From a virus (lineage: Duplodnaviria > Heunggongvirae > Uroviricota > Caudoviricetes): DNA of 64,000 nt. The stretch is from positions 1 through 64,000 of the IMG/VR virus record IMGVR_UViG_3300021256_002164, one strand, 5' to 3'. Within the stretch, counting starts at the first letter, position 1. Each line of letters starts with the position of its first letter. The notes under the pieces are model-generated. The model made no database searches, was not told the DNA's origin, and was given only the letters and a program-made list of their open reading frames with translations. Position numbers and translations under genes: made by a program. This document shows positions 2,788-57,953 of the stretch, piece by piece.

Positions 2788-3609
2788 ATGTTTGAAAAAG
2801 TAAATCCAAGTCATCCAGACAAAATTGCAGATAGAATTGCTGGAGCTATTGTAGATGTAGCATATAAGCAGTGTTCAAACCCTATAATTGCGGTAGAAGT
2901 ATTAATTGGCCATGGTGAATGTAATATTATAATTGAAAGCAATATAGATATTAATAATACAATAATTGAAAATATCGTATATAGGATTTGCGAAGATGAT
3001 ACTATAATTGTTGATATTCATAAAGTTCCACAAGATGAGCACCTAGCAGATAATCAAAATAATAGTCCAAAATGTGGAGATAATGGAATATTCAAAGGTA
3101 CTATTATAACTCGTGAGCAACAATTCTTAACTAATCTTGTTGGAAAAATTTATCAAACATATCCTTATGATGGTAAATATATAATTGATAATAGTAAGAT
3201 AATTGGTTGCCAATCACACATTAAAAATGATGAATTATATAATTACTTAAATTGTAATGGGTATAATCCTATAGTAAATCCTCTTGGCGAATGGACTGGC
3301 GGAATTAATGTTGATTGTGGAGCAACTAATCGTAAACTTGGATCAGATATGGGTGACTCAGTAACAGGAGGTGGTCTCCATGGTAAAGATTTATCTAAAG
3401 CAGATGTTTCAGTTAATATTTATTGTTTCTTAAAAGCACAAGGTAGTTTTGATAATTCAGATTGTCAATTAAGTTGTGCTATTGGTGATGAAACTATTGA
3501 TGGATTACCATATTCTGCAATTATGAATATTGCTTATGATTATATTAAGAGTATTGGTGGTTTTGAAAAGTTTGCTGAATGGGGATTAATACGTCCAAAT
3601 AATTATTAA
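2788..3609 (+). CDS. metK-like: truncated/minimal S-adenosylmethionine synthetase (MetK-like)
   Basis: N-terminus SHPDKIADRIAGAIVDV matches the MetK GHPDKIADQISDAVLDA motif. Also CGDNGIFKG ~ GAGDQGLMFG, GG..DCGATNRK ~ GGPMGDCGLTGRK, GGGLHGKDLSKADVS ~ GGGAFSGKDPSKVDRS. Only 273 aa versus about 384 for bacterial MetK. Confidence 0.65.
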   Translation: MFEKVNPSHPDKIADRIAGAIVDVAYKQCSNPIIAVEVLIGHGECNIIIESNIDINNTIIENIVYRICEDDTIIVDIHKVPQDEHLADNQNNSPKCGDNGIFKGTIITREQQFLTNLVGKIYQTYPYDGKYIIDNSKIIGCQSHIKNDELYNYLNCNGYNPIVNPLGEWTGGINVDCGATNRKLGSDMGDSVTGGGLHGKDLSKADVSVNIYCFLKAQGSFDNSDCQLSCAIGDETIDGLPYSAIMNIAYDYIKSIGGFEKFAEWGLIRPNNY

Positions 3610-3629: not shown

Positions 3630-4745
3630 ATGTTAAACGAAGAAAAAGTATATCAAATTTTAGAAAGGTGGAATGATGAAAGTGACCATTATCTTGGTTC
3701 ACTATTTGGAGCAATATATCATAAATGTCCTGAATGTTATTATTTTCAGTTTAATGATAATCAAGAAATATTTTATGATAAGTATATAAATAAACGAACA
3801 GTTAATAAGGTATCATTAGTTTCATCTCATTGCTTAGATGATAGAAATTTATTATTATCATTTATTAATAAGCCTGATGATTATATGATTATAAATTACT
3901 CACCTACAGAGTATTTAATTCTTGGAAAAAAACAAGATATATTATTGACAATTATTATTAATGATAGTGGAGATAAATCACTTTCTGTATATCAAACTGT
4001 TTATGTTGATAGAAATGTAGAACATAATTTTTTAGATGAATTAAAACCATTCTTTGAATATTCTCAAAGGCATATTGATATTGATTTTGGTATTGCTGCA
4101 GTAGATGCTAGTGGTAGTATATATACTAATTATTATGATTATTATACAGTAGATGTAGATATTAATAAAAATTATAATGATGATATTCCATATGATAAGA
4201 TGATTAATATTCTTAAAGATGATAGTAAGTCGTCATTAATGCTATTTTATGGTGATCCAGGAACCGGAAAATCTACAATAATAAAACATTTTATAGGAAG
4301 ATTACCTGCAAAAGAATTTGTTTTTGTTGATGGTGCACTCTTAGCAAATGTACAGCAAGATAGATTAATGTCTTATTTCTTAGAAAATCAAGATACAGTA
4401 TTTATTTTTGAAGATTGTGAAAAAATATTACTAAGTAGAGATCATAATTATAATCCAACAATGTCAATACTTCTTAATTTAACTGATGGTATTATTAGTG
4501 ATGTTTTGAATATTAAAATTATTTGTACATTTAATACTTCTTTGTCAAATATTGATAAGGCACTATTACGAAAGGGACGTTTGACAATGAAATATGAATT
4601 CAAAAAGTTAAATAAAGAAAAAGCACAGAAACTATTACCTAATGAAACAATTACGCAGGATATGTCTTTAGCAGATATTTATAATTATTATGAAGAAAAC
4701 GATTTTAGTAAGAAACAACAAAATAAAATAGGGTTCAGTGTTTAA
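3630..4745 (+). CDS. AAA+ ATPase with an N-terminal domain of unknown function
   Basis: Walker A GDPGTGKST, Walker B VFIFEDCE, sensor-1-like ICTFNT, Arg-finger region LLRKGRL. N-terminal ~200 aa unassigned (CPECYYF). Confidence 0.7.
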   Translation: MLNEEKVYQILERWNDESDHYLGSLFGAIYHKCPECYYFQFNDNQEIFYDKYINKRTVNKVSLVSSHCLDDRNLLLSFINKPDDYMIINYSPTEYLILGKKQDILLTIIINDSGDKSLSVYQTVYVDRNVEHNFLDELKPFFEYSQRHIDIDFGIAAVDASGSIYTNYYDYYTVDVDINKNYNDDIPYDKMINILKDDSKSSLMLFYGDPGTGKSTIIKHFIGRLPAKEFVFVDGALLANVQQDRLMSYFLENQDTVFIFEDCEKILLSRDHNYNPTMSILLNLTDGIISDVLNIKIICTFNTSLSNIDKALLRKGRLTMKYEFKKLNKEKAQKLLPNETITQDMSLADIYNYYEENDFSKKQQNKIGFSV

Positions 4746-5126: not shown

Positions 5127-5612
5127 ATGAAAGCATTCAATACATATATACAAGAAAAATTTATTCTAAATAAGAATACAAAAGTTCAAACATATATAAA
5201 GGATTGCAGTCAAGGTGATATTGTATATTTATTAAAACTCCATATTGATAGTGGATATATGAAAGAAGATACAGGTAAAGTTATAGAAAATACATGTAAA
5301 ACTATCAATAATGTATCTGTAAAAGATTCTATTAAATGTATAGTACAAATAAGTAAATATAAAAAAATGCAATATATATTTACAAATGGTATAAACTTTG
5401 ATGATAAATCATATATTGCTGTTCAAGAATGGAATGATATATTATATATTATTTCAAGAAATGAAGACTATATAAAAATTATTAAAGATAATACTGATAA
5501 AATATGTAAAGAACTTTGGAAAATAAATGATAATTTATATAATAAGGATGCAGATCAAAAAGAAAAAGATTTAGCATGTTTAAATTATTTTAAAACAAAC
5601 TTTAAATTATAA
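5127..5612 (+). CDS. hypothetical protein; N-terminal motif shared with the DUF285-repeat paralogs at 24–27 kb
   Basis: N-terminus MKAFNTYIQEKFILNKNTK resembles MKNLNQYIQEKFEINKNTK of the three DUF285 genes, but the repeat body is absent. Confidence 0.45.
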   Translation: MKAFNTYIQEKFILNKNTKVQTYIKDCSQGDIVYLLKLHIDSGYMKEDTGKVIENTCKTINNVSVKDSIKCIVQISKYKKMQYIFTNGINFDDKSYIAVQEWNDILYIISRNEDYIKIIKDNTDKICKELWKINDNLYNKDADQKEKDLACLNYFKTNFKL

Positions 5613-5661
5613 AATAGATATAACTATATTAAAATATATAAAATTTGTTCTTTGAAACTTT

Positions 5662-5989
5662 GGGGCTATTTTGGATTTGATTGGATATGTGACTTTAAGA
5701 ATCATGCAGGAGTGTTGAATCCTTAAATTTGACAAAACAATAAATGACGATAATTTTGAATATCGTATGGCTGCCTAACCTTTAGAAGGTTGATAAATAT
5801 CTTTAGGGCATATGCCGGCGCAGTGAGAACCTTTATTAAGGTCGTAGCAACAGAAGCCTCACAAACTACTTCAAACCATAATAATGTTAATCAGGTGAAA
5901 CATAAGTGAACTACATATATTTATAAAAGCATGTAATAAGTTCTTTTAGAAGTGTATTTAAGACGTGGGTTCGAGTCCCACTAGCTCCA
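5662..5989 (+). ncRNA. ssrA: tmRNA (SsrA)
   Basis: 5' end GGGGCTATTTTGGATTTGATTGG resembles the canonical GGGGCUGAUUCUGGAUUCGAC. 3' tRNA-like domain has T-arm GTGGG-TTCGAGT-CCCAC. Acceptor strand TAGCTCC pairs with 5' GGGGCTA, followed by discriminator A. Internal tag ORF …GAC GAT AAT TTT GAA TAT CGT ATG GCT GCC TAA (…DDNFEYRMAA*) ends at 5778. A terminator hairpin follows at 6010..6038. Confidence 0.7.
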
Positions 5990-6009
5990 CAAAATAATTA
6001 AATAATATA

Positions 6010-6038
6010 GAAGTAATATCTATTGCTTCTTTTTTTTG
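6010..6038 (+). terminator. Rho-independent terminator after the tmRNA
   Basis: Hairpin gaagtaata-tc-tattgcttc followed by TTTTTTTTT. Confidence 0.6.
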
Positions 6039-6204
6039 TATTGTTCTTTGAGCAATGCCACAGATTCTAAATCAAAATATAAGATTGGGATCTTGAGTAG
6101 AAATACTCAACATACTAAAAATATATGAGAAATAGAGGCTATGACAAAGCTAAATTTAAATCGTAATTTCAAATCTATGTTACAGTCTTTATACTGTAAT
6201 TAGG

Positions 6205-6858
6205 ATGCGAAAAATTTTATTAATTTTATGTTGTATATTATTTATAAGTAATATACATGGACAACAAATAGCACGTGCAGATGCTATTCTCTCTCTTGAA
6301 ACAATTCTTAATTCTTCTTGGCATAAATCAATGATAAATCCAGCAGAGGATGTGTATGATGATATATGGGATCATACTCATATTAATTGTTATTCAACAT
6401 TAAAAATGGAAAAGAATACATTAATTGATTTACAAGATTTTCATATGCCAATAAATAAAAATGAAATTGTAGTAACTTCTCAATATGGATATAGAAAACA
6501 ATTTAAAAGAAATCACTATGGAATTGACTTAAAAGTTCATACCGGAGATACTATATATTCAACATTTTCAGGAAAAATAAGAATTGTAAAATATGAGCCA
6601 AAAGGATATGGGAAAGTTATTGTTATACGGCATTTTAATGGCCTGGAAACAATTTACGGACATTTATCTAAACAATTAGTAAAAGAAAATGAATATGTTT
6701 ATGCAGGTCAACCTATTGGATTAGGTGGTTCTACAGGTCGTTCAACTGGCCAGCATCTTCATTTAGAAACTAAATATGGAAATGCTCATATTAATCCACA
6801 GAAGATATTTAATTTTAAATATCAAGATATCACAGATGATAAATATTTATATAAATAA
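6205..6858 (+). CDS. M23 family metallopeptidase (lysostaphin-like), secreted
   Basis: Signal peptide. M23 motifs HYGIDL (HxxxD) and GSTGRSTGQHLHLE (HxH). Candidate cell-wall hydrolase or lysin. Confidence 0.8.
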   Translation: MRKILLILCCILFISNIHGQQIARADAILSLETILNSSWHKSMINPAEDVYDDIWDHTHINCYSTLKMEKNTLIDLQDFHMPINKNEIVVTSQYGYRKQFKRNHYGIDLKVHTGDTIYSTFSGKIRIVKYEPKGYGKVIVIRHFNGLETIYGHLSKQLVKENEYVYAGQPIGLGGSTGRSTGQHLHLETKYGNAHINPQKIFNFKYQDITDDKYLYK

Positions 6859-6860
6859 AA

Positions 6861-6886
6861 ATTGGACTCTATAGAGTCCAATTTTT
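6861..6886. terminator. Bidirectional rho-independent terminator
   Basis: Hairpin ttggactc-tata-gagtccaa followed by TTTTTT, between convergent genes. Confidence 0.7.
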
Positions 6887-7359
6887 TAATTAAAGAATTT
6901 TTCAGTTATTATAATAAATTTCATATTATTCTTTTCTGCAAAAGCTTTAGCTGCATTCCATTTATCTACATTTATTACCCATTGTTCTTTTAACCATTCA
7001 GAATCTGCTGAACTTGGTTTAATTGTTTGATCATACGGTTTTATTTCTACTATTGTACGTTCTCCTTTATAATTTTCAATAATATAATCAGGATAATAAT
7101 GTGATTCTTTATCTTTCAATCTACTAAAATATGGTATAGATATTGGTTCTGATGCCCATTTAGTTATTTTTGGATTATTTTCACAAAACTGTATAAATTG
7201 TAATTCTAATCCAGAACGATATATAATGGGCTCATCTTTAACACTACCAAATAATTTTTTACATTGATTTATTGGTATATATCCTTGATGATACCTAGAT
7301 TTTTTACGAGGCTTAAGTTTTTTTATTTGATTATTCTCTAAAACTTTTGGATCTATCAT
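6886..7359 (-). CDS. hypothetical protein with a PD-(D/E)xK-like nuclease signature
   Basis: YYPDYIIENYKGERTIVEIKPY resembles a D…(E/D)xK restriction-endonuclease-fold core. Weak. Confidence 0.35.
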   Translation of the reverse strand: MIDPKVLENNQIKKLKPRKKSRYHQGYIPINQCKKLFGSVKDEPIIYRSGLELQFIQFCENNPKITKWASEPISIPYFSRLKDKESHYYPDYIIENYKGERTIVEIKPYDQTIKPSSADSEWLKEQWVINVDKWNAAKAFAEKNNMKFIIITEKFFN

Positions 7360-13988: not shown

Positions 13989-16328
13989 ATGATATTAGAT
14001 AGAACATGGAGTAAAAAAGAACAAAAATTAACAGTTTCTTATATTGATAAATTAGGTAATAGACAATTTTATCAAAAGTATTTACATCATATTAAAAGCT
14101 ATGAGTATAATCCTAATGGCGATTTAGAAACTTGGGATGAAAAGAAATGTAGTAAAATTTTTAAAGATACCACAGATTATACGCCAAATGAATTTGAAAT
14201 ATTAGAGTATTTATATGAATTGCCCGAAGATTTAAATAAGGCTATGCATGCTCAATATTTTCCAAAGGTATATTCATTTGATATTGAAACTGAAGTTAGT
14301 GATGAATTTCCTGATCCTGAAATTGCTGCTCAAAAAGTAACTGCGATATCATTAGTTGGTCCTGATTTATCATGTATTGTATATGGACTTCACCAATTGA
14401 ATGAAGCACAAATTGAATTATTTAGAAAGAGATATATAGATTGGCTTCATGCTAATGAATTTGCAACAGCATTAATTAATAAGAATAATTGGAAGCCTAA
14501 AGTATTATATCAATATTTTCCTACTGAAGAAGAAATGCTTGAGCATTTTTTCACAGTGATTATTCCAAAAATCAGTTGTTTATCTGGATGGAATAGTTAC
14601 GGATTCGATATGTTATATTTGACTCATCGAATTGAAAGATTATTTGGTAAGAAGATTGCTATGAATATGATTTATAAAGCATCTCCAACAGGTGAAATTA
14701 AAAAGTATTCATGGGAAGATATGAATGGTGATAAGAAATTTTTCTGGGGTCCTGCTCATTCAGTTATTATTGACTATATGCTGGTAGTAAAACAATATGA
14801 TTATACATTAAGACCTTATGAAAGCTATTCATTGGATTGGGTAGGAAGTCATGCTGTCAATGCTCATAAAATTAAATATGAAGGAACATTGCAGCAATTA
14901 TATGAAAGAGATCCTGAATGGTATTATTTCTATAATGCTGTTGATAGTTTGATTACTGAATTAATTCATTATAAGCTTAAGTCTCTTGAATCGCCTTGTG
15001 CAACATCAGCAGTAACATTAGTATCATTATTAAGTGCATTTGGACAAGTTGCATTAGGAACAGCAAATGTATTTGAAGAATTTTATGAGCAAAATAAGAA
15101 AGTAGTATGGGATTATGATGCTATTGAACGTACAAAAATTCCATATGAAGGTGCATTTTGTGGATGTGTTCCTGGTCGTTATGAATTTACAGTTTGTGAT
15201 GATTTTGCTTCACTTTATCCGTCTCAAGTTCGTACATGTAATATATCATTTGAAAATCTTATCCAAGCTAAAGATGGACCAGATAGTTTTGGAAGATATA
15301 TACCAAGAAATTGGACTCCTGAAGAACTAGAAGAATTCAAGAAAGACCCAAACTATTTTGTTACTGTTATGGGTAATGTATATAAGAATGATAAAGACTA
15401 TGCATTCAGACGTATTCAAGCAAAGTTAAAGAGAAATAGAGATAAATATAAATATACAGGACAACGTGTAGAATCAGAAGCATTAGTATATATTGATGAT
15501 ATACTTTCAGGAAAACAATCAAATATTGTATTTGATGATGATGTAAATAAGCTCTTAACTGAAAAGTTTGCATTCTTAGGTGAAAATCCTCAACAATATA
15601 TTAAGAATATGTCTAAGCAAGAATTAGAATTATTTAGAGTTGATGTTGAAGATTTACGACATGAACATTGGCTTCTTGAGAATGCTATGAAAACATCAGG
15701 TAATGGATTATATGGCTGTTGTGCAAATAGATTTTTCTATTTCTATAATATGGCTTTAGCAGGTGATATTACTGGTGAGTGCCGTAATCTTACAAAGACA
15801 ATGTGGAATAATCTTGAATATTTCTTCCATGAAACTTTATGGGAAAGAAAAGACTTATGGAAAGAATTTGACTTTGAACTTGATGAAAGTATGCATGATT
15901 GGTATAGAGAACAACCTATCTCTATATATTCCGATACTGATAGCTTGGCAAAAAAATCATTATTATTAATTAAAGATACTAAAAATATTAAAAATAAAAT
16001 AACTATTGAAGATTTATTTAATCAATCTTTAGATAAAAATGGTTTATCAGATATAACACAGAATAATCAAGAAATAGTTAAGTGTGATCAACAATGTTTA
16101 AATTGGACTAAGGAAAATGGATTACAATATGTACCTATTAAATATATTATGAGACATAAAGTATCTAAAGAACAATTTAAAATTAAAACAAAATCGGGTA
16201 AAGAAATTATAGTTACAGGAGATCATTCTTGTATAGTTTTTAGAAATGGAAAACAATTAACTATTAAAGCTAGAGATATAAATAAATCTACTGATAAGAT
16301 TTTATCAATAATTAATAATGAAGAATAA
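13989..16328 (+). CDS. family-B DNA polymerase, N-terminal cistron (exonuclease plus motifs A, B, C) ending in an N-terminal split-intein fragment
   Basis: Exo I FDIETE, Exo II YGFDMLYL, Exo III YYFYNAVD. Motif A DFASLYPS, motif B KTSGNGLYG, motif C YSDTD|S. After DTD comes a ~128-aa Hint N-terminal half (SLAKK…TGDHSCIVF = intein block B), then stop. Confidence 0.85.
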   Translation: MILDRTWSKKEQKLTVSYIDKLGNRQFYQKYLHHIKSYEYNPNGDLETWDEKKCSKIFKDTTDYTPNEFEILEYLYELPEDLNKAMHAQYFPKVYSFDIETEVSDEFPDPEIAAQKVTAISLVGPDLSCIVYGLHQLNEAQIELFRKRYIDWLHANEFATALINKNNWKPKVLYQYFPTEEEMLEHFFTVIIPKISCLSGWNSYGFDMLYLTHRIERLFGKKIAMNMIYKASPTGEIKKYSWEDMNGDKKFFWGPAHSVIIDYMLVVKQYDYTLRPYESYSLDWVGSHAVNAHKIKYEGTLQQLYERDPEWYYFYNAVDSLITELIHYKLKSLESPCATSAVTLVSLLSAFGQVALGTANVFEEFYEQNKKVVWDYDAIERTKIPYEGAFCGCVPGRYEFTVCDDFASLYPSQVRTCNISFENLIQAKDGPDSFGRYIPRNWTPEELEEFKKDPNYFVTVMGNVYKNDKDYAFRRIQAKLKRNRDKYKYTGQRVESEALVYIDDILSGKQSNIVFDDDVNKLLTEKFAFLGENPQQYIKNMSKQELELFRVDVEDLRHEHWLLENAMKTSGNGLYGCCANRFFYFYNMALAGDITGECRNLTKTMWNNLEYFFHETLWERKDLWKEFDFELDESMHDWYREQPISIYSDTDSLAKKSLLLIKDTKNIKNKITIEDLFNQSLDKNGLSDITQNNQEIVKCDQQCLNWTKENGLQYVPIKYIMRHKVSKEQFKIKTKSGKEIIVTGDHSCIVFRNGKQLTIKARDINKSTDKILSIINNEE
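15942..16325 (+). mobile_element. N-terminal intein fragment (IntN-like, ~128 aa) inserted at PolB motif C
   Basis: Begins with Ser directly after YSDTD; contains the block-B-like VTGDHSCIV; terminates at a stop codon with no endonuclease domain in frame. Confidence 0.65.
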
Positions 16329-17565
16329 CGAATTTTATCATACTAGTATAGACATTAAAGAATATCCCTTTGATATAATATCTTTAGAAGAAGTTAATCA
16401 AGAACTAATACAATTAGTTAAAAAATTTAATTCTTCTAAAGATATTAATGAGAAAAAAGAATTATCTAAACAAATACCTATTGAATTTCCTAAATGTCGA
16501 TTTTGCGGAAATATTATTATAAATTCAAATTTTTTAATAAATTTAAAACAAAAAAATAAAACAATACAATTAATATTACCATCAGTTTATTACCGTGAAA
16601 TAGATGGAAAAAAATATTATTTAAGTTGTTGTGAAAATTGTTTATTAGAACATTTTAAAGATAATCCGCCTAAAGCACCTAAATATTATTTTATGAAAGC
16701 AAATATTTATGGTCAATATTGTTTTGGATATTCTGATGAAGAATATAAAAAAATATGTTCAATGACAGTTGGTGTAACATATAATTCAATGATTAATAAA
16801 TGGGGTAAAGAATTAGGAGAGAAAAAATGGAAAGAATATCGTGATAAACATTCAAAAATAGCGTCTAAACAATATTTTATTGATAAATATGGTAAAGAAG
16901 AAGGATTAAAAATCTATCATGATTCGAGAGCAATAACTAAAAAGGGAATGATAAAGAAATATGGTAAAGAACTTGGTTTAGAAAAATGGAAAGAATATTG
17001 TGATAAACAAAAAATAACTAAATCATTTGATTATATGATTAATAAATTTGGATATGATAAAGCAATTCAAATTAATAAATCTAAAGCATTAACATTAGAT
17101 AATTTTATTAGAAAATATGGAGAAGAATTAGGCAATAAAAAATATATAGAATTTACAAAAAGGCATATTAATTTTTATTCTAATATTTCTCAAAAATTAT
17201 TTAATGAATTAGATAAATATTTATCAGAAAAATATACAACATATTATGCAACTAAAAATTATGAATATCCTATTAAATTATTAGATAAATATGTTTGTTT
17301 AGATTATTATATTAAAGAATTAAATATATGTATTGAATTTAATGGAAGTATATTTCATGGAGAACCTCGATTATATAAAGATAATGATAAATGTAATCCA
17401 TTTATTAATTTAACTGCTAAAGAAATTAGAGATAATGATCAAAAAAGATATAATTTACTAAAAGAATTATATAATATTAATACATATATTATTTGGGAAT
17501 TAGATTATAATAAAAATTTTAATATACAAGACTATATTATAAAAGTATTAAAAATTAATATATAA
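16318..17565 (+). mobile_element. free-standing homing-endonuclease-like gene inside the fractured polymerase
   Basis: Separate frame, overlaps the upstream stop by 11 nt. N-terminal Cys4 zinc ribbon (CRFCGN…CCENC). Four ~30-aa repeats (KYGKELGLEKWKEYCDKQ…). C-terminal Vsr/PD-(D/E)xK-like nuclease core LDYYIKELNICIEFNGSIFHGEP. Confidence 0.6.
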
Positions 17566-17570
17566 TAATT

Positions 17571-18539
17571 ATGTTAGAATATCAATTTGAAGAAATAGAA
17601 AGTATTGAACAACTAGACAATTTTAATGATGAATATGTTTATGATATAGAAGTAGATGATAATTCTCATACTTTTATAGCAAATGATATATTAGTTCATA
17701 ATTCGGTTTATACAACTTATGGTACATTATTCCGTTGTATGACACCAAAATATCAAGAAAAGTATAAAGATAAGAAAACAAAAGTAGATTGGATATTGAA
17801 TTTTAATAAGAAATTTGTAGATAAGCAAAATAACCAATGGTGTGAAGAAATGTATAATCCTCGTCATGGCAAGAATGTTCATGAGTTTGAATTAGAGACT
17901 GTTTCATATTCACAAATTTGCTTAAAGAAAAAGAAATATCTTAAAGGTTATGCGTTTGTTAAAGGTAAGTTTTACGATAAGCCAAAAGTAAGTGGAACAG
18001 GTATTGAACTTATTAAATCAACTACACCAGCATTATGTAGAGAGATTCTTTCAGACTTAATGAATAGTCTTATGTTTGAATATGATGAAGACCATAAGAA
18101 AGAATATATTCTTGAGTTTAATATGAAATTAGCTAATTATAGGAAACAATTCTATTCTGCTCCATTTGAAGATATATCTCAATCTATAGGTGTTGGTAAT
18201 TATAAAAAGTATGTTATTGATGACGAAGATGATTTACTATTAGGAAAACAATGTCCAGTATCAGTTCAAGCTATAGCACGATATAATTATTTAGCACATA
18301 AGAATGGACAAGATAATCTTAAGCAATATTCAGGTAAGATTAAATATTATAATGTTAAGATAGGTAATACAGATGGATATTTTGGTTTTCCTGCTGGCGA
18401 GCTTCCTGAATGGGCACCACCTATGAATAAAGAAATGCAATGGAGAAAAACAATTATAGACCCAATTAATCGTTTCTTGGAAGTTATGGAGATTCCATTG
18501 GTAAATGCTGGAACAGCTCAGCAATTAACATTATTTTAA
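17571..18539 (+). CDS. family-B DNA polymerase, C-terminal cistron beginning with a C-terminal split-intein fragment
   Basis: First 44 aa MLEYQ…VYDIEVDDNSHTFIANDILVHN are intein blocks F/G ending HN, then S+VYTTYG restores the motif-C context (YSDTD-SVY). Downstream KKKY (KKRY motif) and a thumb region. Confidence 0.85.
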   Translation: MLEYQFEEIESIEQLDNFNDEYVYDIEVDDNSHTFIANDILVHNSVYTTYGTLFRCMTPKYQEKYKDKKTKVDWILNFNKKFVDKQNNQWCEEMYNPRHGKNVHEFELETVSYSQICLKKKKYLKGYAFVKGKFYDKPKVSGTGIELIKSTTPALCREILSDLMNSLMFEYDEDHKKEYILEFNMKLANYRKQFYSAPFEDISQSIGVGNYKKYVIDDEDDLLLGKQCPVSVQAIARYNYLAHKNGQDNLKQYSGKIKYYNVKIGNTDGYFGFPAGELPEWAPPMNKEMQWRKTIIDPINRFLEVMEIPLVNAGTAQQLTLF

Positions 18540-19762: not shown

Positions 19763-21709
19763 ATGAGCAACAAAGTTTTTGGTATCGATTTGGGTACCGG
19801 TAATTCATGTGTAGCTGTTATTGAAAATGGAAAGGCTACAGTTATTGCAAATGCTGAAGGTAATCGTACAACTCCTTCAGTAGTTTTTATTAAGGGTGAT
19901 GAACGTAAAGTTGGAGGTTCAGCTAAACGTGGTATGATTATGAACCCTAAGAATACAGTATCTTTCATTAAGCGTTTTATGGGTGCTGAATGGCAAGATG
20001 CAGATGTACAAAAGATGTTGACTATGGTAACTTATGAAGTAGTTAACAAAAATAATAAGCCGTATATTAAGATTGATGGTAAAGAATATTCTGCTGAGGA
20101 AATCTCTTCATATATTCTTGCTGACCTCGCAAAGGTTGCATCAGAATATTATGGTGAAGATGTAAAGAAGGTTGTTATTACTGTTCCTGCATGGTTCAAT
20201 GATGTTCAACGTAAGGCAACACAACTTGCTGGCGAACTTGCTGGACTTGAAGTTCTCCGTATTATCAATGAGCCTACCGCAGCTATTCTTGCAGCTGGTA
20301 TGGATAAAGAAGATAAGGAACGTCTTGTACTTGTAAATGACCTTGGTTGTGGTACTGAAGATGTATCTATTTGCGAAGTTTCACAAGGAATCGTTGAAGT
20401 TCTTGCATCTGATGGTGATGTATTCCTTGGCGGTCAAAACTATGATAATGAAATTGTAAATTGGTTGGCCGATGAATTTATGAAGGACCATGCTGGTGTT
20501 GATTTACGAAAGGATCCTATGGCATATGCACGTTTGGTTGAAGCTGCAGAAAAAGCAAAATGTGAATTGTCAACCGCAACACAAGCTGAAATCAATCTTC
20601 CTTATATTACTGTTATTGATAGTGTTCCTCAAATGTTGGTAACCACATTGACTCGTGCTAAATTTGAATCACTTACAAAGCAATATACAGATAAGGTAAT
20701 TGAAATTGCAAAACGTGCTCTTGAAAAGGCAGGTAAGACTTCTGCAGATATTACAGATATTCTTCTTGTTGGTGGTTCTTCACGTATGCCACAAGTACAA
20801 GAAGCACTTAAGAATGCATTTGGTGATAAACTTAATAAGCAATCTAATTTTGATGAAGCAGTTGCACTTGGTGCAGCAACTCAAGCTAAAGCAATTGCAA
20901 ATCCTGAAGAAGGTGATACATTGCTTCTTGATGTAACTCCTATTTCACTTGGTATTGAAGTTAATGGCAATATGTTTGGTAAGCTTGTAGATGCTAATAC
21001 AACTATTCCATGTAAGAAATCACAAATCTTTACAACAGCGGTAGATAATCAACCTGCAGTATCAATCGTAGTTCTTCAAGGTGAACGTCCTATGAGTAAG
21101 GATAATAAGCAAATTGGTATATTCAACCTTGATGGTATTGCTCCTGCCCCTCGTGGAATTCCTCAAATTGAAGTAACATTTGATATTGATGCTAATGGTA
21201 CTTTGACAGTAACTGCTGTTGATAAGGGTACTAATAAGGAACAGCATATTACTATTTCAGATTCTAATACTCTATCACAAGATGAAATTGATAGAATTAA
21301 GAAGGAAGCTGAAGAACATAAAGCTGAAGATGATAAGAAGAAAGCTGAGTTTGAAAAGAAGAATGAAGCTGAAGGATATATCTATTCAGTTGAAAAATCT
21401 TTGAATGATGAACAATTTAAAGATAAGTTTACTGAAGATGAAAAGAAGCAACTTGAAGACCTTGTAAAGGAAGCTAAGGAAGCAATCGATTCTAAAGATG
21501 ATGAAAAGATGTTTTCTAAGAAAGAAGAACTTGAAAAGGTATATGCTCCTATCATTACACGTATCTATCAAGAATCAATGCCTAAGGACCAACAAGGTAA
21601 TCCCCAAGTAGATCCTAATATGTTCAAAAATATGTTTGGTAGTGGTAATTTTGCTACAGGTGCAGATTTTGATCCATCAAAGTTTACACAAGCAAAACCG
21701 AATAATTAA
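19763..21709 (+). CDS. dnaK: Hsp70/DnaK-family chaperone (divergent)
   Basis: IDLGTGNS (cf. IDLGTTNS), [10 protein letters not shown] (cf. DLGGGTFDVS), VGGSSRMP (cf. VGGSTRIP), [14 protein letters not shown], charged C-terminal lid. GC content higher than flanks. Confidence 0.85.
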
Positions 21710-21771
21710 TATATAAAACTCTCAATGGGATTCTCATTTGAGAGTCCCTATATAAATATATTCAAAAATAA

Positions 21772-22215
21772 TTGGAGGTAATTATTATGACAAACGCTTT
21801 AGATTTTTTCAATTTTGGTAAATCGTCTATTTTCGACAATTGGTTCGACAATTTTGGTATGATTCCAACAAACTTTACCAATTCCCCAAAGGTTAATGTA
21901 AAGGAAACTGATAAAGCTTATGAAATAGAAATTGCCAATCCTGGTTTCTCTAAAGATGAAACAAAAATTGAGGTTAAGAATGGTATTATTACTGTTTCAA
22001 TGACTTCTGAAAGTAAAGAAGGTGAAGGAACAGAAGATAAGTATCATGTTAAACAATGGAGTAAATCATCTTATGAGGAATCTTGGAATCTTCCAGAAAA
22101 TGTAATTGATGACCAAATCTCAGCAAAGAATGTTGATGGGGTTCTTACAATTACATTACCTAAACGAGAGGAAGATACTAAGAAAGAAGAACCAAGGACC
22201 ATTACTATTGAATGA
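21772..22215 (+). CDS. small heat-shock protein (Hsp20/α-crystallin family)
   Basis: α-Crystallin domain ending …AKNVDGVLTITLPK. A GGAGGT ribosome-binding site precedes the ATG. Confidence 0.8.
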   Translation: MEVIIMTNALDFFNFGKSSIFDNWFDNFGMIPTNFTNSPKVNVKETDKAYEIEIANPGFSKDETKIEVKNGIITVSMTSESKEGEGTEDKYHVKQWSKSSYEESWNLPENVIDDQISAKNVDGVLTITLPKREEDTKKEEPRTITIE

Positions 22216-22218
22216 TAT

Positions 22219-22262
22219 TTATTTTGGGTGGGACTTAAAAATCTCACCCAAATTTTTCTATT
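22219..22262 (+). terminator. Rho-independent terminator after the sHsp gene
   Basis: tttgggtg…cacccaaa hairpin followed by a TTTTTCTATTTT run. Confidence 0.6.
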
Positions 22263-22290
22263 TTATTATATTAAATATATTTGAAGTATT

Positions 22291-22926
22291 ATGACAGAAT
22301 TAAGCTTAATTGCACAAAATTATTTAACAGATAAAGGTTGTACATATTTTAATTCTCATTGTTATACTGAAATTTATAATTCTTATTTTCAAAAACTTAA
22401 GAATAAAAATAGAAAAGTATATATTTTAGAAATTGGAGTACAAGCAGGATATGATTTATTAATGATGAATGATTATTTTGAAGGCAATTGTGAAATATAT
22501 GGTTTTGATATTAATATAAATACTTTAGAAGTTGAATTACCTGATAATATTCATATATTTGAATTAAATGCTGCAAGTATACCAGAGTTAAATAAATTTT
22601 ATTCAAACTTAATACATTGGTCAGTAAATAAAATGCCTCAATTTGATATTATTATTGATGACGGTTCCCATGAGTCACAAGATATATTAACATCTTTATA
22701 TTTTTTCTATCTTATGTTATCTTATGATGGTATATATATTATAGAAGATTTACATGCAGAATCAGCAAAAGAAGCATTAAATTATTTAACATTTAATGAG
22801 TCAAATAATATTAATATGGATGATGTAACAAAAAATATACAAAGTAAAACTATACATTATATTTGTAATTCCTATTGTATAGACTATGATAGTTCTATAT
22901 GTGCAGTTTTAACATTTAAAAAATAA
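22291..22926 (+). CDS. class I SAM-dependent methyltransferase
   Basis: Motif I-like VYILEIGVQAG and motif IV-like IIIDDGSH (TylF/FkbM-like O-MTase architecture). Confidence 0.55.
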   Translation: MTELSLIAQNYLTDKGCTYFNSHCYTEIYNSYFQKLKNKNRKVYILEIGVQAGYDLLMMNDYFEGNCEIYGFDININTLEVELPDNIHIFELNAASIPELNKFYSNLIHWSVNKMPQFDIIIDDGSHESQDILTSLYFFYLMLSYDGIYIIEDLHAESAKEALNYLTFNESNNINMDDVTKNIQSKTIHYICNSYCIDYDSSICAVLTFKK

Positions 22927-22929
22927 GTT

Positions 22930-24018
22930 ATGGCAAATAATAAAGATTTATACGAAATATTAGGTTTATCACGTAATGCATCTGATAATGATATTAAGAA
23001 AGCATATAAGAAGCTTGCTTTAAAATATCATCCTGATCGTCAAGGTGGAAAATCAGATAAAGAAAAGAAAGAAGCTGAAGAAAAATTTAAGGAAGTATCA
23101 TGGGCTTATGATATATTAAGCAATCCTGAAAAGAAACAGCGATATGATCAGTTTGGTATTACTGATGACCAGCAACAAATGAGTGGCGGATTTGATCCTT
23201 CAGAAATATTCAAACATTTTATGGGAGGATTTGATAGTATGTTTGATGATGACGATTCTCCTTTTGGAACATTTTTTAATAGAAGAAGTTCTCGTCAACC
23301 CAGAGGACCTCAGCCAGGACAGTCAATAAGAATGCAAATTCCAGTTAGTATAGAAGAAATCTGTAATGGTGTTCATAGAGATATTGAATATAATATACAA
23401 GCAAAATGCTCAAGTTGTCATGGAACTGGTGGTGATGGAGTTGAAACTTGTCAATATTGTCATGGAACTGGTATGATTACAGAAACTCAACGAATGGGAT
23501 TTAGTATTATTCAAAATTCTCATCCATGTCATTATTGTGGAGGAACTGGTAAAACTATTAAATATAAATGTTCAAAATGTAATGGTACTGGATTTGAAAC
23601 TAAAACAGTTAAAGTACATGTTGATATTAATCCTGGATTTGAAAATGGATATCAACAAATGTTTAATGGAAAGGGATATGAATCTAAAGATGGTGGGCAA
23701 AATGGTGATTTACTATTAGATTTTATTTATCAATATGATACTTCTAAATATTCAATTCAAGGAAATAATATATATGAAATAATTGAAATTCCATATTATG
23801 ATTGTATACTTGGTTGTAAAAATAAAGAAGTAACATTACCAAATAATGATAAAATAAAAATCAATATTCCAGAATATTCAAAAGATAATACATTAGTTCA
23901 AACAAATAAGAGATTTGGAAGAATGGGATATATATATGTTATAAAAGTAAAAATGCCAACATATATAAGAGATAAAGAAAAAGAACTATTAGAGAAAATT
24001 AAAAAGGAGAACCATTAA
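22930..24018 (+). CDS. dnaJ: DnaJ (Hsp40) co-chaperone
   Basis: J-domain DLYEILGLSRNASDNDIKKAYKKLALKYHPDRQ; four CxxCxGxG zinc-finger repeats (CSSCHGTG, CQYCHGTG, CHYCGGTG, CSKCNGTG); C-terminal β domains. Confidence 0.85.
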   Translation: MANNKDLYEILGLSRNASDNDIKKAYKKLALKYHPDRQGGKSDKEKKEAEEKFKEVSWAYDILSNPEKKQRYDQFGITDDQQQMSGGFDPSEIFKHFMGGFDSMFDDDDSPFGTFFNRRSSRQPRGPQPGQSIRMQIPVSIEEICNGVHRDIEYNIQAKCSSCHGTGGDGVETCQYCHGTGMITETQRMGFSIIQNSHPCHYCGGTGKTIKYKCSKCNGTGFETKTVKVHVDINPGFENGYQQMFNGKGYESKDGGQNGDLLLDFIYQYDTSKYSIQGNNIYEIIEIPYYDCILGCKNKEVTLPNNDKIKINIPEYSKDNTLVQTNKRFGRMGYIYVIKVKMPTYIRDKEKELLEKIKKENH

Positions 24019-24043
24019 GATTCTCCTTTATTTTTTTAATCAA
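23998..24043. terminator. Bidirectional terminator hairpin
   Basis: aggagaa…tctcct hairpin followed by TTTATTTTTTT, between convergent dnaJ and the first DUF285 gene. Confidence 0.6.
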
Positions 24044-25196
24044 CAATACCTCCACCATAAAACTCATCAAATGTTTTACCTCTCCAGAGCATTTTTACTG
24101 GGTCAATAAAAAATGTTCCATACTTATAATCATTTCCTTTTAAAATACATGGATATTTTACTGATAAATCTCCAGTAGTTTTATCTACTTCTTTATAATA
24201 TTTTTTAAGTAGACTCATTTCATCAGTTGTAAGTGCACCACCTTTATCATTATTTAATTTATTATTTAATGCTATTAATTTAGATTTATCTGATGTAGGA
24301 ATATTTTTTATTCTATTTCTTGCTTCTTTAGATATTTCTCCAAAATACCATACAGGCGGATTTTTTTCTAATGGTGAACCAGTAAATATATTTTTCATAT
24401 TTGTAACACGGTTTACATTCCAATTATCAAGATTTCCGTTAAACTTAGAATTGTAAAACATATAAGACATTTCAGTAACTCTACTTACATTCCATTTTGA
24501 TATATTTCCTTTAAATTTTTTATTACTACTAAACATTGAGCTTATATTTGTAACACGACTTACATCCCAATTTGATATATCACCATTAAGTCCACTAAAT
24601 TTACAATTATAAAACATTTCATGAATATCTGTAACATGACTTACATCCCATTTTGATAAATCTCCGTCATAAACAGATTGTGTAAACATAGAGCGCATAT
24701 TTGTAACATGGCTTACGTCCCAATTTGATATGTCACCATTTTTTCCTGTAAATGCACTTCCAAAAAACATTAATTCAGTACTTTCTATACTACTTAATTT
24801 CCATTTTGATAAATCTCCGTCATATAATGAATCAAAGAACATACGAGTTACATCTTTAACATTTGATACATCCCAATTTCCTAAATCACCGTTTTCACCA
24901 GTATATTTACTATCACAAAACATTCTTGACATATCTTCAACATTGCTTACATCCCATTTTGATATATCACCATTAAATTTTCTTAAATATAAATGTTTAC
25001 CATTAAATAAGCTAGACATATCTGTTATCTGACTAACATCAATATCATTTAAATTTGCATTAAGACCTCTTTCAGTAATAAGAGTTTTAAGTAATTTATC
25101 TAATTCTTTTCTTGTTTTCGGAAAATATTTATATTTAGTTACAGTATCATTATTTAATTCAAATTTTTCTTGTATATATTGATTTAAATTTTTCAT
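24036..25196 (-). CDS. DUF285-type repeat protein (Mycoplasma-type 'WDVSNVT.M..MF' repeats), full length
   Basis: ≥9 tandem ~24-aa repeats (GDISNWDVS.VT.M..MF); conserved N-terminus MKNLNQYIQEKFE; extended C-terminal domain. Confidence 0.7.
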   Translation of the reverse strand: MKNLNQYIQEKFELNNDTVTKYKYFPKTRKELDKLLKTLITERGLNANLNDIDVSQITDMSSLFNGKHLYLRKFNGDISKWDVSNVEDMSRMFCDSKYTGENGDLGNWDVSNVKDVTRMFFDSLYDGDLSKWKLSSIESTELMFFGSAFTGKNGDISNWDVSHVTNMRSMFTQSVYDGDLSKWDVSHVTDIHEMFYNCKFSGLNGDISNWDVSRVTNISSMFSSNKKFKGNISKWNVSRVTEMSYMFYNSKFNGNLDNWNVNRVTNMKNIFTGSPLEKNPPVWYFGEISKEARNRIKNIPTSDKSKLIALNNKLNNDKGGALTTDEMSLLKKYYKEVDKTTGDLSVKYPCILKGNDYKYGTFFIDPVKMLWRGKTFDEFYGGGIVD

Positions 25197-25271
25197 ATTT
25201 ATATTTATATTATTTTTTATGCTTATTTTATTGTTTATTTTAATTCTATTTCTTGCTGATTTAGATATTTC

Positions 25272-26114
25272 TCAAAAATACCATATTGGAGGATTTTTTT
25301 CTAATGATGAACCAACAAACATATTTTTCTTATATTTTACTTTCTCTACATTCCAATTTTCTAATCCTTTACCTGTAAATAATGAACATCCATAAAACAT
25401 ACAAAGCATATCTGTAACTTTAGATACATTCCATTTGCTTAAATCACAATTAAATTTTTTGCAATTACCAAACATATTACACATAGTTTCAACATTAGAA
25501 ACATCCCAATTACTTAAATCACAATTCAAATTTGTACAATCTTTAAATGTAGATTCCATAGTTTCAACATTAGATACTTCCCAATTTTCTAATCCTTTAC
25601 CTGTAAATAATGAACATCCTTCAAATATACCACTCATATCTTTAACTTTAGATACTTTCCAATTTTCTAATCCTTTACCGGTAAATGATGAACAATGATA
25701 AAACATATGCCACATATCTTCAATATTAGATACATCCCAATTACTTAAATCACTATTAAAATTTTTACAACCACCAAACATATGTCTTATATCTTTAACA
25801 TTACTAATATCCCATTTATTTAAATCACAATTAAAATATGTACAATTAGTAAACATATTTCTCATAGTTGTAACATTAGATACATCCCATAATGATATAT
25901 CAATATTATGTGGATCTAACTCTTGAAACAATGATTCCATATCTGTTATATTACTAACATCTATATCATTTAAATCAATATCCTTATCTTTAGCTAATCG
26001 TTCTTCTAATATTTTTCGAAGCTCCTCTGTTGTCTTAGGAGAATATTTATAAGTTCTTTTTGTATTCTTATTTATTTCAAATTTTTCTTGTATATATTGA
26101 TTTAAATTTTTCAT
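25272..26114 (-). CDS. DUF285-type repeat protein, paralog 2 (C-terminally truncated by an in-frame TGA)
   Basis: Same N-terminus and repeats. Ends …PPIWYF*, whereas paralog 1 reads …PPVWYFGEISKEARNRI. Sequence after the TGA still encodes EISKSARNRI. Confidence 0.65.
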   Translation of the reverse strand: MKNLNQYIQEKFEINKNTKRTYKYSPKTTEELRKILEERLAKDKDIDLNDIDVSNITDMESLFQELDPHNIDISLWDVSNVTTMRNMFTNCTYFNCDLNKWDISNVKDIRHMFGGCKNFNSDLSNWDVSNIEDMWHMFYHCSSFTGKGLENWKVSKVKDMSGIFEGCSLFTGKGLENWEVSNVETMESTFKDCTNLNCDLSNWDVSNVETMCNMFGNCKKFNCDLSKWNVSKVTDMLCMFYGCSLFTGKGLENWNVEKVKYKKNMFVGSSLEKNPPIWYF

Positions 26115-26164
26115 TTTTATATTAATTATTTTATTTTTTAATTTTTAAAACAAATAAATATAAA

Positions 26165-26854
26165 TTAATTTTTATACCAAGCAGGAATATGTTTTAATGA
26201 TGAGCAGTTGACAAACATTTGAGCTGGGAATTTTGCTAGTTTAGACACATCCCATTTACTTAAATCACAATTAAAACTTTTACAATCATAGAACATATAG
26301 CCCATATATTCAACTTTAGACACTTTCCATTTACTCAAATCAGAATTAAATTGTTGACAGCCATGAAACATAGCCTCCGTATTTACACACGAAGATAAAT
26401 CCCAATGGCTTAAATCTGCATTAAATTCTTCACAATCATAGAACAAGTAACTCATATATTTAACGTTAGATACATCCCAATCGCTTAAATCAGAATTAAA
26501 TATATCACATCTGTTAAACATACCATTCATATCTGTAACATTAGAAACGTTCCATTCACTCAAATCAGAATTAAAATTCATACAATTGGAAAACATATAT
26601 TCCATATTTTCAACATTAGAAACATCCCATTGCGATATATCTATATTATGAGGATCCAAACCTTTAAATAACTCATTCATATATGTTATTTTAGATACAT
26701 CAATATCATTCAAATTGGCATTTTTATCTTTCTTTAGCCGTTGTTCTATTATTTCTCGTAATTCTTCTGTTGTCTTAGGAGAATATTTATAAGTTCTTTT
26801 TGTATTCTTATTTATTTCAAATTTTTCTTGTATATATTGATTTAAATTTTTCAT
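26165..26854 (-). CDS. DUF285-type repeat protein, paralog 3
   Basis: First ~40 codons and the upstream region are near-identical to paralog 2 at the nucleotide level; same repeat family. Confidence 0.65.
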   Translation of the reverse strand: MKNLNQYIQEKFEINKNTKRTYKYSPKTTEELREIIEQRLKKDKNANLNDIDVSKITYMNELFKGLDPHNIDISQWDVSNVENMEYMFSNCMNFNSDLSEWNVSNVTDMNGMFNRCDIFNSDLSDWDVSNVKYMSYLFYDCEEFNADLSHWDLSSCVNTEAMFHGCQQFNSDLSKWKVSKVEYMGYMFYDCKSFNCDLSKWDVSKLAKFPAQMFVNCSSLKHIPAWYKN

Positions 26855-57850: not shown

Positions 57851-57879
57851 AATTTTTTATATACAAATTTAATGATTTT

Positions 57880-57898
57880 CTTATATATAAAAATAAAA
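57880..57898 (-). promoter_or_regulatory. candidate late-promoter motif (cttatatataaaaataaaa) ~30 nt upstream of the 2873-aa gene
   Basis: Near-identical element at 63301..63319 with the same spacing to the 1772-aa gene start; variants at 45304..45328, 49163..49185 and 10283..10300. Confidence 0.3.
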
Positions 57899-57935
57899 TA
57901 GGCCATTTTAAAAATGACCTATTCTTAAAAGTTTT
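57895..57935 (-). terminator. Rho-independent terminator downstream of the 1772-aa gene
   Basis: Near-palindrome aataggccattttt/aaaaatgacctatt; T-rich on the minus strand. Confidence 0.5.
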
Positions 57936-57953
57936 ATAAAGTAATATTTTCTA

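Follow-up and report, generated by a model that had tools for sequence, protein, structure and literature searches.

Introduction

Transfer-messenger RNA (tmRNA), encoded by ssrA, and the protein SmpB are already known from bacteriophages, and they are reported in huge phages (PMC7162821), in Bacillus phage G (PMC12484599) and in mycobacteriophages (PMC4131195). For huge phages of more than 200 kb, a one-piece tmRNA called by ARAGORN has been described together with SmpB (PMC7162821), and the ssrA genes of phage G and the mycobacteriophages are presumed to support translation during infection (PMC4131195; PMC12484599). The tag peptides encoded by tmRNAs are highly diverse, with 710 unique tags on record (PMC4131195). 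Phage-encoded tmRNA, though known, has hardly been studied functionally. In this study, a tmRNA gene was analysed in a 64,000-nucleotide stretch of phage DNA (Caudoviricetes; positions 1 to 64,000 of the IMG/VR record IMGVR_UViG_3300021256_002164), hereafter called the window. An initial annotation of the letters had placed at 5662-6038 a tmRNA whose tag ends in RMAA instead of the usual ALAA, and had proposed that the altered ending changes recognition by ClpXP and SspB-type adaptors and could redirect or blunt host tagging. All coordinates are those of the 64-kb window unless a contig is named, and L-numbers (L020, L155 and so on) are labels of compared contigs.

Results

The window encodes a complete one-piece tmRNA

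A single RNA gene was called by ARAGORN in the window, a tmRNA at 5662-5990 (+) with the tag DDNFEYRMAA* and its coding part at gene positions 85-117. RF00023, the only Rfam family to reach threshold in the window, matched 5662-5992 with 87.3 bits (E=1.7e-32; gathering score 47), the full model 1-374 being aligned. The ARAGORN and covariance-model scans that the initial annotation had suggested as checks both score the region and agree on the resume codon, the first pseudoknot (PK1) being supported by the covariation given below, and the tmRNA claim is borne out by the ARAGORN call and the full-length RF00023 match. The stretch 5662-5992 (+) is thereby confirmed as a complete one-piece tmRNA gene of about 329-331 nt, with a GC content of 35% against about 24-26% in its flanks.

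Relatives of this tmRNA were found through homologues of the neighbouring M23 peptidase and through related SmpB proteins, not through the RNA. The alignment used for covariation, made up of the window tmRNA and four relatives, is thus independent of the RNA sequence in its choice of members. In these five sequences, the 45 proposed base pairs are standard pairs in 96.4% of the cells, and 13 pairs show two-sided changes, compared with 0-2 after a shift of the 3' strands by 1-3 columns.

The individual elements, all on the plus strand, follow the tmRNA plan, and the acceptor stem, T-arm, discriminator A and tag open reading frame (ORF) listed in the initial annotation can each be read directly in the window. 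The 5' strand of the acceptor stem, GGGGCUA at 5662-5668, pairs with UAGCUCC at 5982-5988 and gives G3:U70; acceptor pairs 1 and 2 are both G:C, with G1:C72 present. A G:U at acceptor pair 3 occurs in 5/5 aligned sequences, and pairs 4-6 vary on both strands. The 3' strand is followed by the discriminator A at 5989 and then CAA, so that 5982-5992 closes with the 3' end ACAA; the 3' ends of the relatives are ACAG, ACCA or UCGA. The T-arm GUGGG-UUCGAGU-CCCAC at 5965-5981 is 100% paired, with two co-varying pairs, and together with the 7-bp acceptor stem, which co-varies likewise in relatives, it forms the tRNA-like domain. The long helix 2 joins 5681-5707 to 5929-5961 through 24 pairs, with 98-100% of the cells paired in the five sequences.

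PK1 occupies 5708-5734, with stem 1 formed by AGGA (5708-5711) and UCCU (5720-5723) and stem 2 by UGUUGAA (5713-5719) and UUUGACA (5728-5734). All 4/4 pairs of stem 1 show two-sided changes in the alignment; stem 2 was recognised by eye in a further alignment. The same H-type knot is built from wholly different stems in L020, L160 and L163, namely C[A/G][U/A]C/G[A/U][U/C]G and U[A/U]GAUU/AAUCAA. Downstream of PK1, a U-A at 5741-5742 precedes the resume codon at positions -5/-4 and corresponds, spacing included, to U85/A86 of E. coli, and the context AAUAAAU|G before the resume codon is invariant among relatives. The tmRNA frame is set by A86, a base that is almost universal (PMC2481249). The tag ORF (GAC GAT AAT TTT GAA TAT CGT ATG GCT GCC TAA) spans 5746-5778, from the resume codon GAC (Asp), which sits on the consensus resume codon in the Rfam alignment, through DDNFEYRMAA to a UAA stop. 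Directly 3' of the stop codon, the helix 5 hairpin CCUU-UAG-AAGG is found at 5779-5789; relatives carry UCC-GAUA-GGA and UCCC-UAA-GGGA in the same place, and since these hairpins still pair, helix 5 is preserved despite differing sequences. A short variable domain at 5790-5928 takes the site of PK2-PK4 in other tmRNAs, knots that can be replaced in the E. coli molecule. It contains a helix of GUGAG (5823-5827) and CUCAC (5858-5862), in which two pairs are altered on both sides in the five sequences.

Flanking signals

The conserved box GTTCTTTGAAA at 5647-5657 (+) lies 5-15 nt before the mature 5' end of the tmRNA. It is identical in 6/7 aligned tmRNA loci, with two mismatches in the seventh (L163), and because only one exact copy exists in the window it is not a general phage promoter. 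It is a candidate for a dedicated promoter or processing element. A terminator, which the initial annotation had placed after the tmRNA, is present at 6009-6037 (+) as an intrinsic terminator consisting of a 9-bp A+U-rich hairpin and U8 (dG -10.3 kcal/mol). The hairpin has z = -3.43 against shuffles, and 1/200 shuffles folds as well. A consensus terminator scan missed the hairpin at 6009-6037, because it needs three G-C pairs and the stem is A+U-rich.

In relatives, the sequence TTTGACAGTTGGAAAGACAA is conserved right after the tmRNA 3' end and replaces the hairpin and U8 of the window (L020 9583-9610; L023 7941-7965; L024 4063-4085; L028 136-160; L029 8720-8745). Between the terminator and the start codon of the M23 peptidase gene, moreover, lies a non-coding stretch of some 150 nt, 6053-6204 (+), which five phages share at about 90% identity, against just 63-66% for their M23 proteins; its counterparts are at about 9850-10000 in L020, 8245-8400 in L023, 4355-4515 in L024 and 480-635 in L028. 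A hairpin at 6093-6111 (UUGAGUA-GAAAU-ACUCAA) keeps its pairing through two-sided changes in L023, L024 and L028, and a second hairpin stands immediately 5' of the M23 start codon. No Rfam family matched the 6053-6204 stretch at E<=1. It is a candidate for a new leader or small RNA.

The tmRNA belongs to a conserved phage locus

An exact-protein look-up placed the window on a 203,125-bp ENA contig, SHIW14-1_SAMN02144230 scaffold_67. The tmRNA is situated between a plus-strand gene block, comprising a gyrase/topoisomerase, an SPFH protein, a SAM-synthetase-N-like protein, an AAA ATPase and a 161-aa orphan ORF, and the M23 peptidase gene (6205-6858), beyond which minus-strand structural genes follow. 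Four distinct relatives (L020/L021, L023, L024/L025 and L029/L030) carry a tmRNA at the same syntenic site, and L028 preserves a 3' fragment of a tmRNA followed by M23 and SmpB. The order SAM-synthetase-N-like protein, AAA, small ORF (-) and tmRNA is conserved among relatives: the AAA ATPase and the SAM-synthetase-N-like protein accompany the tmRNA in every relative examined (L020, L023, L024, L029), M23 follows it in L020, L023 and L024, and SmpB is present in L020, L024 and L029.

A rival reading is a bacterial ssrA mis-assembled onto phage DNA, or a prophage attachment site; ssrA is a common integration site, and many short IMG/VR contigs carry bacterial-type tmRNAs. Yet identical junctions around the tmRNA occur in a second, independent assembly, the gene stands between phage genes inside a contig of at least 203 kb, and its synteny is shared by at least five diverged phages. 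At 331 nt and 35% GC it also differs from the tmRNAs of Bacteroidales, with 394-400 nt and 47-54% GC, and no integrase was noted nearby in the Pfam and PHROG scans. This explanation is effectively refuted, and the flanking phage genes, the junctions in two assemblies and the synteny in relatives agree with the initial annotation in making the tmRNA a phage-encoded one.

Complete SmpB proteins (PF01668, 146-147 aa) are encoded by the relatives L020, L024, L029 and L028. Their genes start 1.3-2.3 kb downstream of the tmRNA 3' end in the first three and about 1.7 kb past the truncated tmRNA in L028; the L020 protein (147 aa), the one sequence inspected, has a basic C-terminal tail. More than 120 clusters of related SmpB proteins were found at 65-91% identity, many of them on contigs of 240-465 kb, and one of these proteins is encoded on a phage contig of 442 kb that stems from the sample of the window itself. 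SmpB proteins at about 50% identity to those of the relatives occur in every Lak phage and in the phages of 635-735 kb (LR7565xx) described by Al-Shayeb et al.; no tmRNA was found within ±20 kb of SmpB in Lak-B5 and LR756502. In the window phage, the site of the relatives' SmpB block leads straight into the minus-strand structural genes. Two neighbouring ORFs were considered in this connection and rejected. The 161-aa ORF at 5127-5612 is not a divergent SmpB, for it has no Pfam or PHROG match, no IMG/VR relatives and no similarity to SmpB, and the ORF at 6886-7359, considered as a 'TnsA-like' mobile element displacing SmpB, was ruled out as such by its match to PHROG 218 (gp4-type head closure).

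Among 50,697 GenBank phage records, blastn with the tmRNA as query found nothing similar, a 27-mer from its 3' end had 0 matches in IMG/VR and JGI, and a pattern for the 3' end of the tRNA-like domain retrieved from IMG/VR tRNA-Ala genes of phage tRNA arrays alone and no tmRNAs. Another tRNA-Ala-like sequence was noted in L004 (2720-3367, +) and L001 (about 5931-6600, -), where an HNH-type endonuclease ORF is followed by the tRNA-Ala-like 3' half GGGTTCGAGTCCCACTAGCTCCA. This element is called by no tRNA finder and may be an intron-containing or split tRNA.

The tag ending is fixed in the clade

Both ARAGORN and the sequence confirm the reported tag ending RMAA in place of ALAA: the Leu-Ala-Ala of the canonical ssrA degron is absent, and the tag ends in Met-Ala-Ala. 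The term 'non-canonical' used in the initial annotation is relative: the C-terminal degron departs from that of E. coli by A8->R and L9->M, and the length, Tyr7, the hydrophobic residue 9 and Ala-Ala are as in E. coli.

The window and L020 have the identical tag DDNFEYRMAA, with 3 synonymous and 0 non-synonymous differences between their tag ORFs, while their M23 proteins share just 63% identity. DDSYEYRMAA is the tag of L023, and AEDETFYRMAA that of L025 and L029. A pattern directed to the 3' region and independent of the tag retrieved exactly three core-clade contigs from IMG/VR, 3/3 of which end in YRMAA. In the core clade as a whole (n=8: the window, the four protein-found relatives and these three contigs), YRMAA closes 8/8 tags, which thus all retain Tyr at -5 and have Arg, not Ala, at -4. 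The codons vary, with TAT or TAC for Tyr, CGT, AGA or AGG for Arg and GCT, GCA, GCC or GCG for Ala, and the N-terminal part varies as well (DDNFEY, DDSYEY, DDTTTY, DDEFEY, AEDETFY, AEEDTFY; resume codon Asp or Ala). This turnover of codons and upstream residues around a constant YRMAA is the mark of selection on the peptide. The frame thus appears to be translated, with a C terminus that matters and is under selection.

A second IMG/VR pattern combined the resume context with YRMAA. It is biased by design toward that ending, and the frequency of YRMAA tags outside the core clade is uninformative because the pattern required them. Ten contigs were returned, nine of 104-435 kb and one of 11 kb, with the tags DDTTTYRMAA, DDEFEYRMAA, AEEDTFYRMAA, AERSDYRMAA, GRSYSTYRMAA and ANDESYRMAA. 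The AERSDYRMAA tag occurs on five contigs, in tmRNAs of about 550-580 nt that ARAGORN missed, and the GRSYSTYRMAA tmRNA has a weak Rfam match. In their conserved ends, the tmRNAs with these two tags (the L155/L162 group and L157) are 56-58% identical to that of the window, no closer than unrelated tmRNAs. YRMAA is therefore either more conserved than the RNA scaffold or has arisen repeatedly.

The AERSDYRMAA tmRNAs (L155 3469-4018, L158 5418-5966, L162 3242-3819, L164 7748-8298; Rfam 77-81 bits) exceed ordinary tmRNAs by an inserted stretch of some 200 nt, and no intron family was found in them at the gathering threshold. The ANDESYRMAA tag belongs to a permuted tmRNA on the 11-kb contig (L159 5213-5578, -). 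Circularly permuted tmRNAs of the two-piece type were further seen on the T4-like phage contigs L169, L171, L178, L181 and L190 and at about 20 more IMG/VR loci; ARAGORN reports them as 'tmRNA*', and RF04321 scores 104-110 bits on L159 and L181. L159 also encodes gp32, gp59 and ClpP. At least 25 sister contigs have ANDESYALAA, from which L159 differs by GCATTG -> CGCATG, so that a compensating +1/-1 frameshift accounts for the change from Ala-Leu to Arg-Met. We know of no earlier description of phage-encoded permuted tmRNAs.

Host and host tags

Bacteroidota is the likely host phylum. It is favoured because most cultured phages with a related capsid protein have hosts in that phylum and Lak phages are attributed to Prevotella, and because the nearest named bacterial homologue of the M23 peptidase, at 56% identity, comes from a Bacteroidaceae metagenome-assembled genome (MAG). 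The best capsid matches are the huge phage LR756500 (36%), jumbo phages of Tenacibaculum, Chryseobacterium and Sphingomonas, and Prevotella Lak phages, with identities of 28-36% to the Al-Shayeb et al. huge phages and the Lak phages. DnaK gave no host, since its best 120 matches are all phage relatives at 83-97%. These matches, at least 120 in number and on contigs up to 467 kb, point to a large, abundant clade, and the study labels (SHIW14, STEW19, XIEF21, WILK20, WOLF17) suggest that it is probably of ruminant gut origin.

A scan for GE[N/T]NYALAA gave at least 120 loci. Among the matches listed, 79/80 are Bacteroidota, including rumen Prevotellaceae, a sheep-omasum Bacteroidales MAG and Segatella copri, and the remaining one is an oddly named record; ARAGORN confirmed GENNYALAA in seven, in tmRNAs of 394-400 nt. 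The comparison with the host ssrA that the initial annotation had suggested could thus be made by way of the presumed phylum, and there the endings differ, with Arg-Met against Ala-Leu before Ala-Ala. In their conserved ends the Bacteroidales tmRNAs are 54-55% identical to the phage tmRNA, and unrelated phage tmRNAs are as close.

If the tag of the real host itself ended in (Y)RMAA, the phage copy would simply track the host degron. Met at -3 does occur in some Bacteroidota and Chlorobiota tags (...YAMAA). A degenerate pattern for the exact tag (10 residues plus TAA, and not the RMAA ending) had 0 matches among 185,579 species of bacteria and archaea, each represented by one genome, and 0 in JGI metagenomes and IMG/VR. 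Such mimicry of an only indirectly assigned host is nevertheless improbable, considering that the listed GE[N/T]NYALAA matches are Bacteroidota but for one and include rumen and sheep members, that the phage tmRNA is no closer to Bacteroidales tmRNAs than to those of unrelated phages, and that the string YRMAA was not found as a tag in the searchable literature.

Could the ending define a separate degradation signal?

The clade-wide fixation of RMAA lends some weight to the idea that this ending is of consequence. In its stronger form, the idea would mean that YRMAA-tagged products are read by a different protease or adaptor than the ALAA-tagged proteins of the host, or are spared from ClpXP, the reader being phage-encoded or a particular host AAA+ protease. 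YRMAA is fixed in the core clade through all changes of codon and N-terminal residue, it recurs in the divergent huge-phage tmRNAs described above, and both the GENNYALAA of the likely host phylum and the absence of the exact tag from the 185,579 species genomes set it apart. Arg at -4 is a non-conservative change, and LAA, the commonest tag ending, is the critical ClpX determinant (PMC9382460). In Mollicutes, a lineage that lacks ClpXP, the tags end in ...NYAFA and are read mainly by Lon, so that an ending change goes with a protease change (PMC9382460). As for possible readers, an AAA (PF00004) ATPase is syntenic with the tmRNA in all relatives, and the unrelated T4-like fragment with an RMAA tag, L159, encodes ClpP.

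On the other hand, L->M is a conservative exchange, and with Ala-Ala still at the end of the tag, host ClpX may well read it. Other huge-phage tmRNAs retain ALAA (GKNTLALAA in L014, and likewise L184 and L201), the overall design of the E. coli tag is preserved, and the phages add SmpB rather than remove it. The syntenic AAA protein, finally, matches generic AAA domains only. An orthogonal degron is thus considered unlikely, and a still more specific form, in which a phage-specific YRMAA signal would be served by the phages' own tmRNA-SmpB system and a dedicated reader (the syntenic AAA+ protein or one host protease), is quite improbable. The evidence speaks for normal rescue rather than for the proposal that altered ClpXP/SspB recognition redirects or blunts host tagging. 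YRMAA is most likely a clade-fixed variant of the YALAA signal that would still direct products to an AAA+ protease.

Phage genome context

The window has a GC content of about 26%, and phage hallmark genes were identified by Pfam and PHROG matches, in agreement with the phage structural and replication setting named in the initial annotation. They include a T4 gp23-type major capsid protein (45465-47264, -), a prohead protease (47367-49124, -), a T4 gp4-like head-closure protein (6886-7359, -; PHROG 218) and a family B DNA polymerase with an intein (13989-18539, +). The genome is that of a T4-like huge phage, of which the contig of at least 203 kb may be a part only, relatives reaching 390-470 kb.

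Upstream of the tmRNA lie the SAM-synthetase-N-like protein (2788-3609, +; PHROG 1569) and the AAA (PF00004) ATPase (3630-4745, +), which has an extra 200-aa N-terminal domain; its AAA domain gives weak matches to proteasomal Rpt and Cdc48-type unfoldases and otherwise to generic AAA domains. An RtcB RNA ligase is encoded at ~7.7-9.0 kb of the source contig (L214 874-2211), roughly 14 kb upstream of the tmRNA. RtcB and the tmRNA could together help to repair or maintain the translation machinery, possibly when host defences cleave RNA. Downstream, a chaperone set of Hsp70, Hsp20 and DnaJ is found at 19763-24018 (+). In the distant huge-phage relatives L014 (10474-13539) and L017 (15486-20663), a gene for an FtsH-like Peptidase_M41 adjoins Hsp70, and these chaperone-protease genes lie within a few kb of tRNA arrays, in L014 also of the tmRNA with the tag GKNTLALAA. 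The grouping of Hsp70, M41, tRNA and tmRNA suggests a phage protein-quality-control module.

The polymerase is spread over three consecutive ORFs. The first (779 aa) contains the N-terminal polymerase motifs and an intein N-terminal splicing region, the second (415 aa) has no Pfam match, and the third (322 aa) begins with an intein C-terminal splicing region; the arrangement is either an intein with its middle part in another frame or an unusual split. A sigma-70-like protein is encoded at 32705-33868 (-), and a collagen-repeat fibre of 1324 aa with a C-terminal endosialidase-chaperone domain at 27752-31726 (-). The fibre repeats raise the local GC content to 37-43% and contain an antisense ORF of 619 aa (29354-31213, +), probably a repeat artefact. 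Three tandem DUF285 (BspA-like leucine-rich repeat) genes of 386, 280 and 229 aa at 24036-26854 (-) may function in host recognition or surface binding, and giant ORFs of 2873 and 1772 aa (49229-63272, -) adjoin the head genes.

Discussion

The gene at 5662-5992 is very probably a working phage-encoded tmRNA that adds ribosome-rescue capacity during infection. According to this reading, the tmRNA would be transcribed on its own from behind the GTTCTTTGAAA box and end at the hairpin-U8 terminator, after which host enzymes would trim its ends and add CCA. The host alanyl-tRNA synthetase (AlaRS) would charge the tRNA-like domain through G3:U70, and the charged tmRNA would enter, with SmpB of the host or a phage copy, ribosomes stalled on broken or stop-less mRNAs. 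Translation would resume at the GAC at 5746, (A)DDNFEYRMAA would be appended, and the ribosome would be released at the UAA. The phage would thereby gain extra rescue capacity while infecting with a very A+T-rich genome. The identity of the gene, its structure and reading frame, the conservation of the peptide, the synteny and the SmpB of relatives are shown by the data above, and we infer the transcription signals, the charging, the SmpB partner, the proteolysis of tagged products and the host. A working rescue system fits the neighbourhood, with RtcB upstream and Hsp70, Hsp20 and DnaJ downstream, and support of ribosome rescue by tmRNA is in line with proposals made for huge phages (PMC7162821).

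Several points weigh against the rescue reading. A scan for sigma-70-type promoters gave nothing above chance in such A+T-rich DNA, and CCA is absent from the gene, which ends in ACAA. The PK2-PK4 region has a low-confidence Rfam alignment with deletions and is about 65 nt shorter than its Bacteroidales counterpart; whole core-clade tmRNAs measure 331-398 nt, and those of Bacteroidales 394-400 nt. YRMAA is a putative degradation signal, the host is an inferred one, and expression, charging and tagging are predicted from the sequence. SmpB, moreover, was not found by tblastn in the window, nor in ~84 kb of the source contig (positions 6,794 to about 90,600). The partner would therefore be the host SmpB, or a copy in unread or unassembled sequence.

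The lack of SmpB in those ~84 kb would also suit an RNA that acts as a decoy, soaking up host SmpB or AlaRS and so blunting host trans-translation. Such a role has been suggested for the ssrA of mycobacteriophage DS6A, which consists of the tRNA-like domain (TLD) only, and a TLD-like molecule can inhibit tmRNA (PMC4131195). In the present case, however, the gene is full-length, with PK1, resume context, ORF, stop codon and helix 5, and the conservation of the ORF at the amino-acid level with synonymous turnover makes sense only if it is translated. The relatives, furthermore, supply extra SmpB and do not deplete it. A decoy or inhibitor is hence very improbable, and the working rescue system is favoured over it because the RNA is complete, its helices co-vary, its tag is conserved as a peptide, and SmpB adjoins the tmRNA in relatives.

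The locus adds to the known phage tmRNAs a well-defined, abundant clade of ruminant-gut huge phages with a conserved tmRNA module and, in relatives, SmpB nearby. Its tag frame is demonstrably under selection as a peptide, and the fixed YRMAA differs from the ALAA of the likely host phylum. Neither the clade-wide YRMAA ending nor the conserved tmRNA-SmpB module of these gut phages was found in the searchable literature. Should the tag after all be an orthogonal signal, it would let the phage decide what becomes of stalled products without entering into competition with the host ClpXP queue or overloading it. Should YRMAA and ALAA tags behave alike, the tmRNA would be one more translation-maintenance gene of huge phages; interest rises clearly only if a different protease or adaptor reads the tag.

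Among described systems, the huge phages of Al-Shayeb et al. resemble the present one in having genomes of more than 200 kb, a one-piece tmRNA, other translation genes and SmpB within the group (PMC7162821), and the same setting is found here in a 203,125-bp contig with a gp23-type capsid, a prohead protease and a gp4-like head-closure protein. What differs is the clade-wide YRMAA ending and the synteny of tmRNA, M23 and SmpB documented here, tags not being discussed in the accessible text of that study (PMC7162821). Bacillus phage G and mycobacteriophages such as Bxz1, Catera and Wildcat are large myoviruses that also carry ssrA in non-coding gaps, according to the available portions of the two reports (PMC4131195; PMC12484599). 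Their hosts, in contrast, are Firmicutes and Actinobacteria, and their tags are unrelated, that of phage G being AKLNITNNELQVA (PMC12484599); no SmpB partner is mentioned in those portions, and no further check was made (PMC4131195; PMC12484599).

The ssrA of Bacteroidota (Prevotella, Segatella, rumen Bacteroidales) is likewise of the one-piece type, with a non-alanine resume codon (Gly there, Asp here) and a tag of 9-10 residues with Tyr at -5 and a terminal Ala-Ala. It differs from the phage gene in its tag GENNYALAA, its 394-400 nt and its GC content of 47-54%, the phage tmRNA having 331 nt, 35% GC and a shortened PK2-4 region, and in the phage tag Arg-Met stands for Ala-Leu at -4/-3. Compared with AANDENYALAA of E. 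coli, ADDNFEYRMAA has the same 11 residues when the charged Ala is counted, an acidic and polar N terminus, Tyr7, a hydrophobic residue 9 and Ala10-Ala11, and differs from it by A8->R and L9->M. Flynn et al. reportedly found in 2001 that ClpA uses tag residues 8-10 and SspB residues 1-4 and 7. SspB is a proteobacterial adaptor. Mollicutes offer a precedent for a lineage-wide change of the ending paired with a change of protease (PMC9382460); in the present case, the changed ending is carried by phages.

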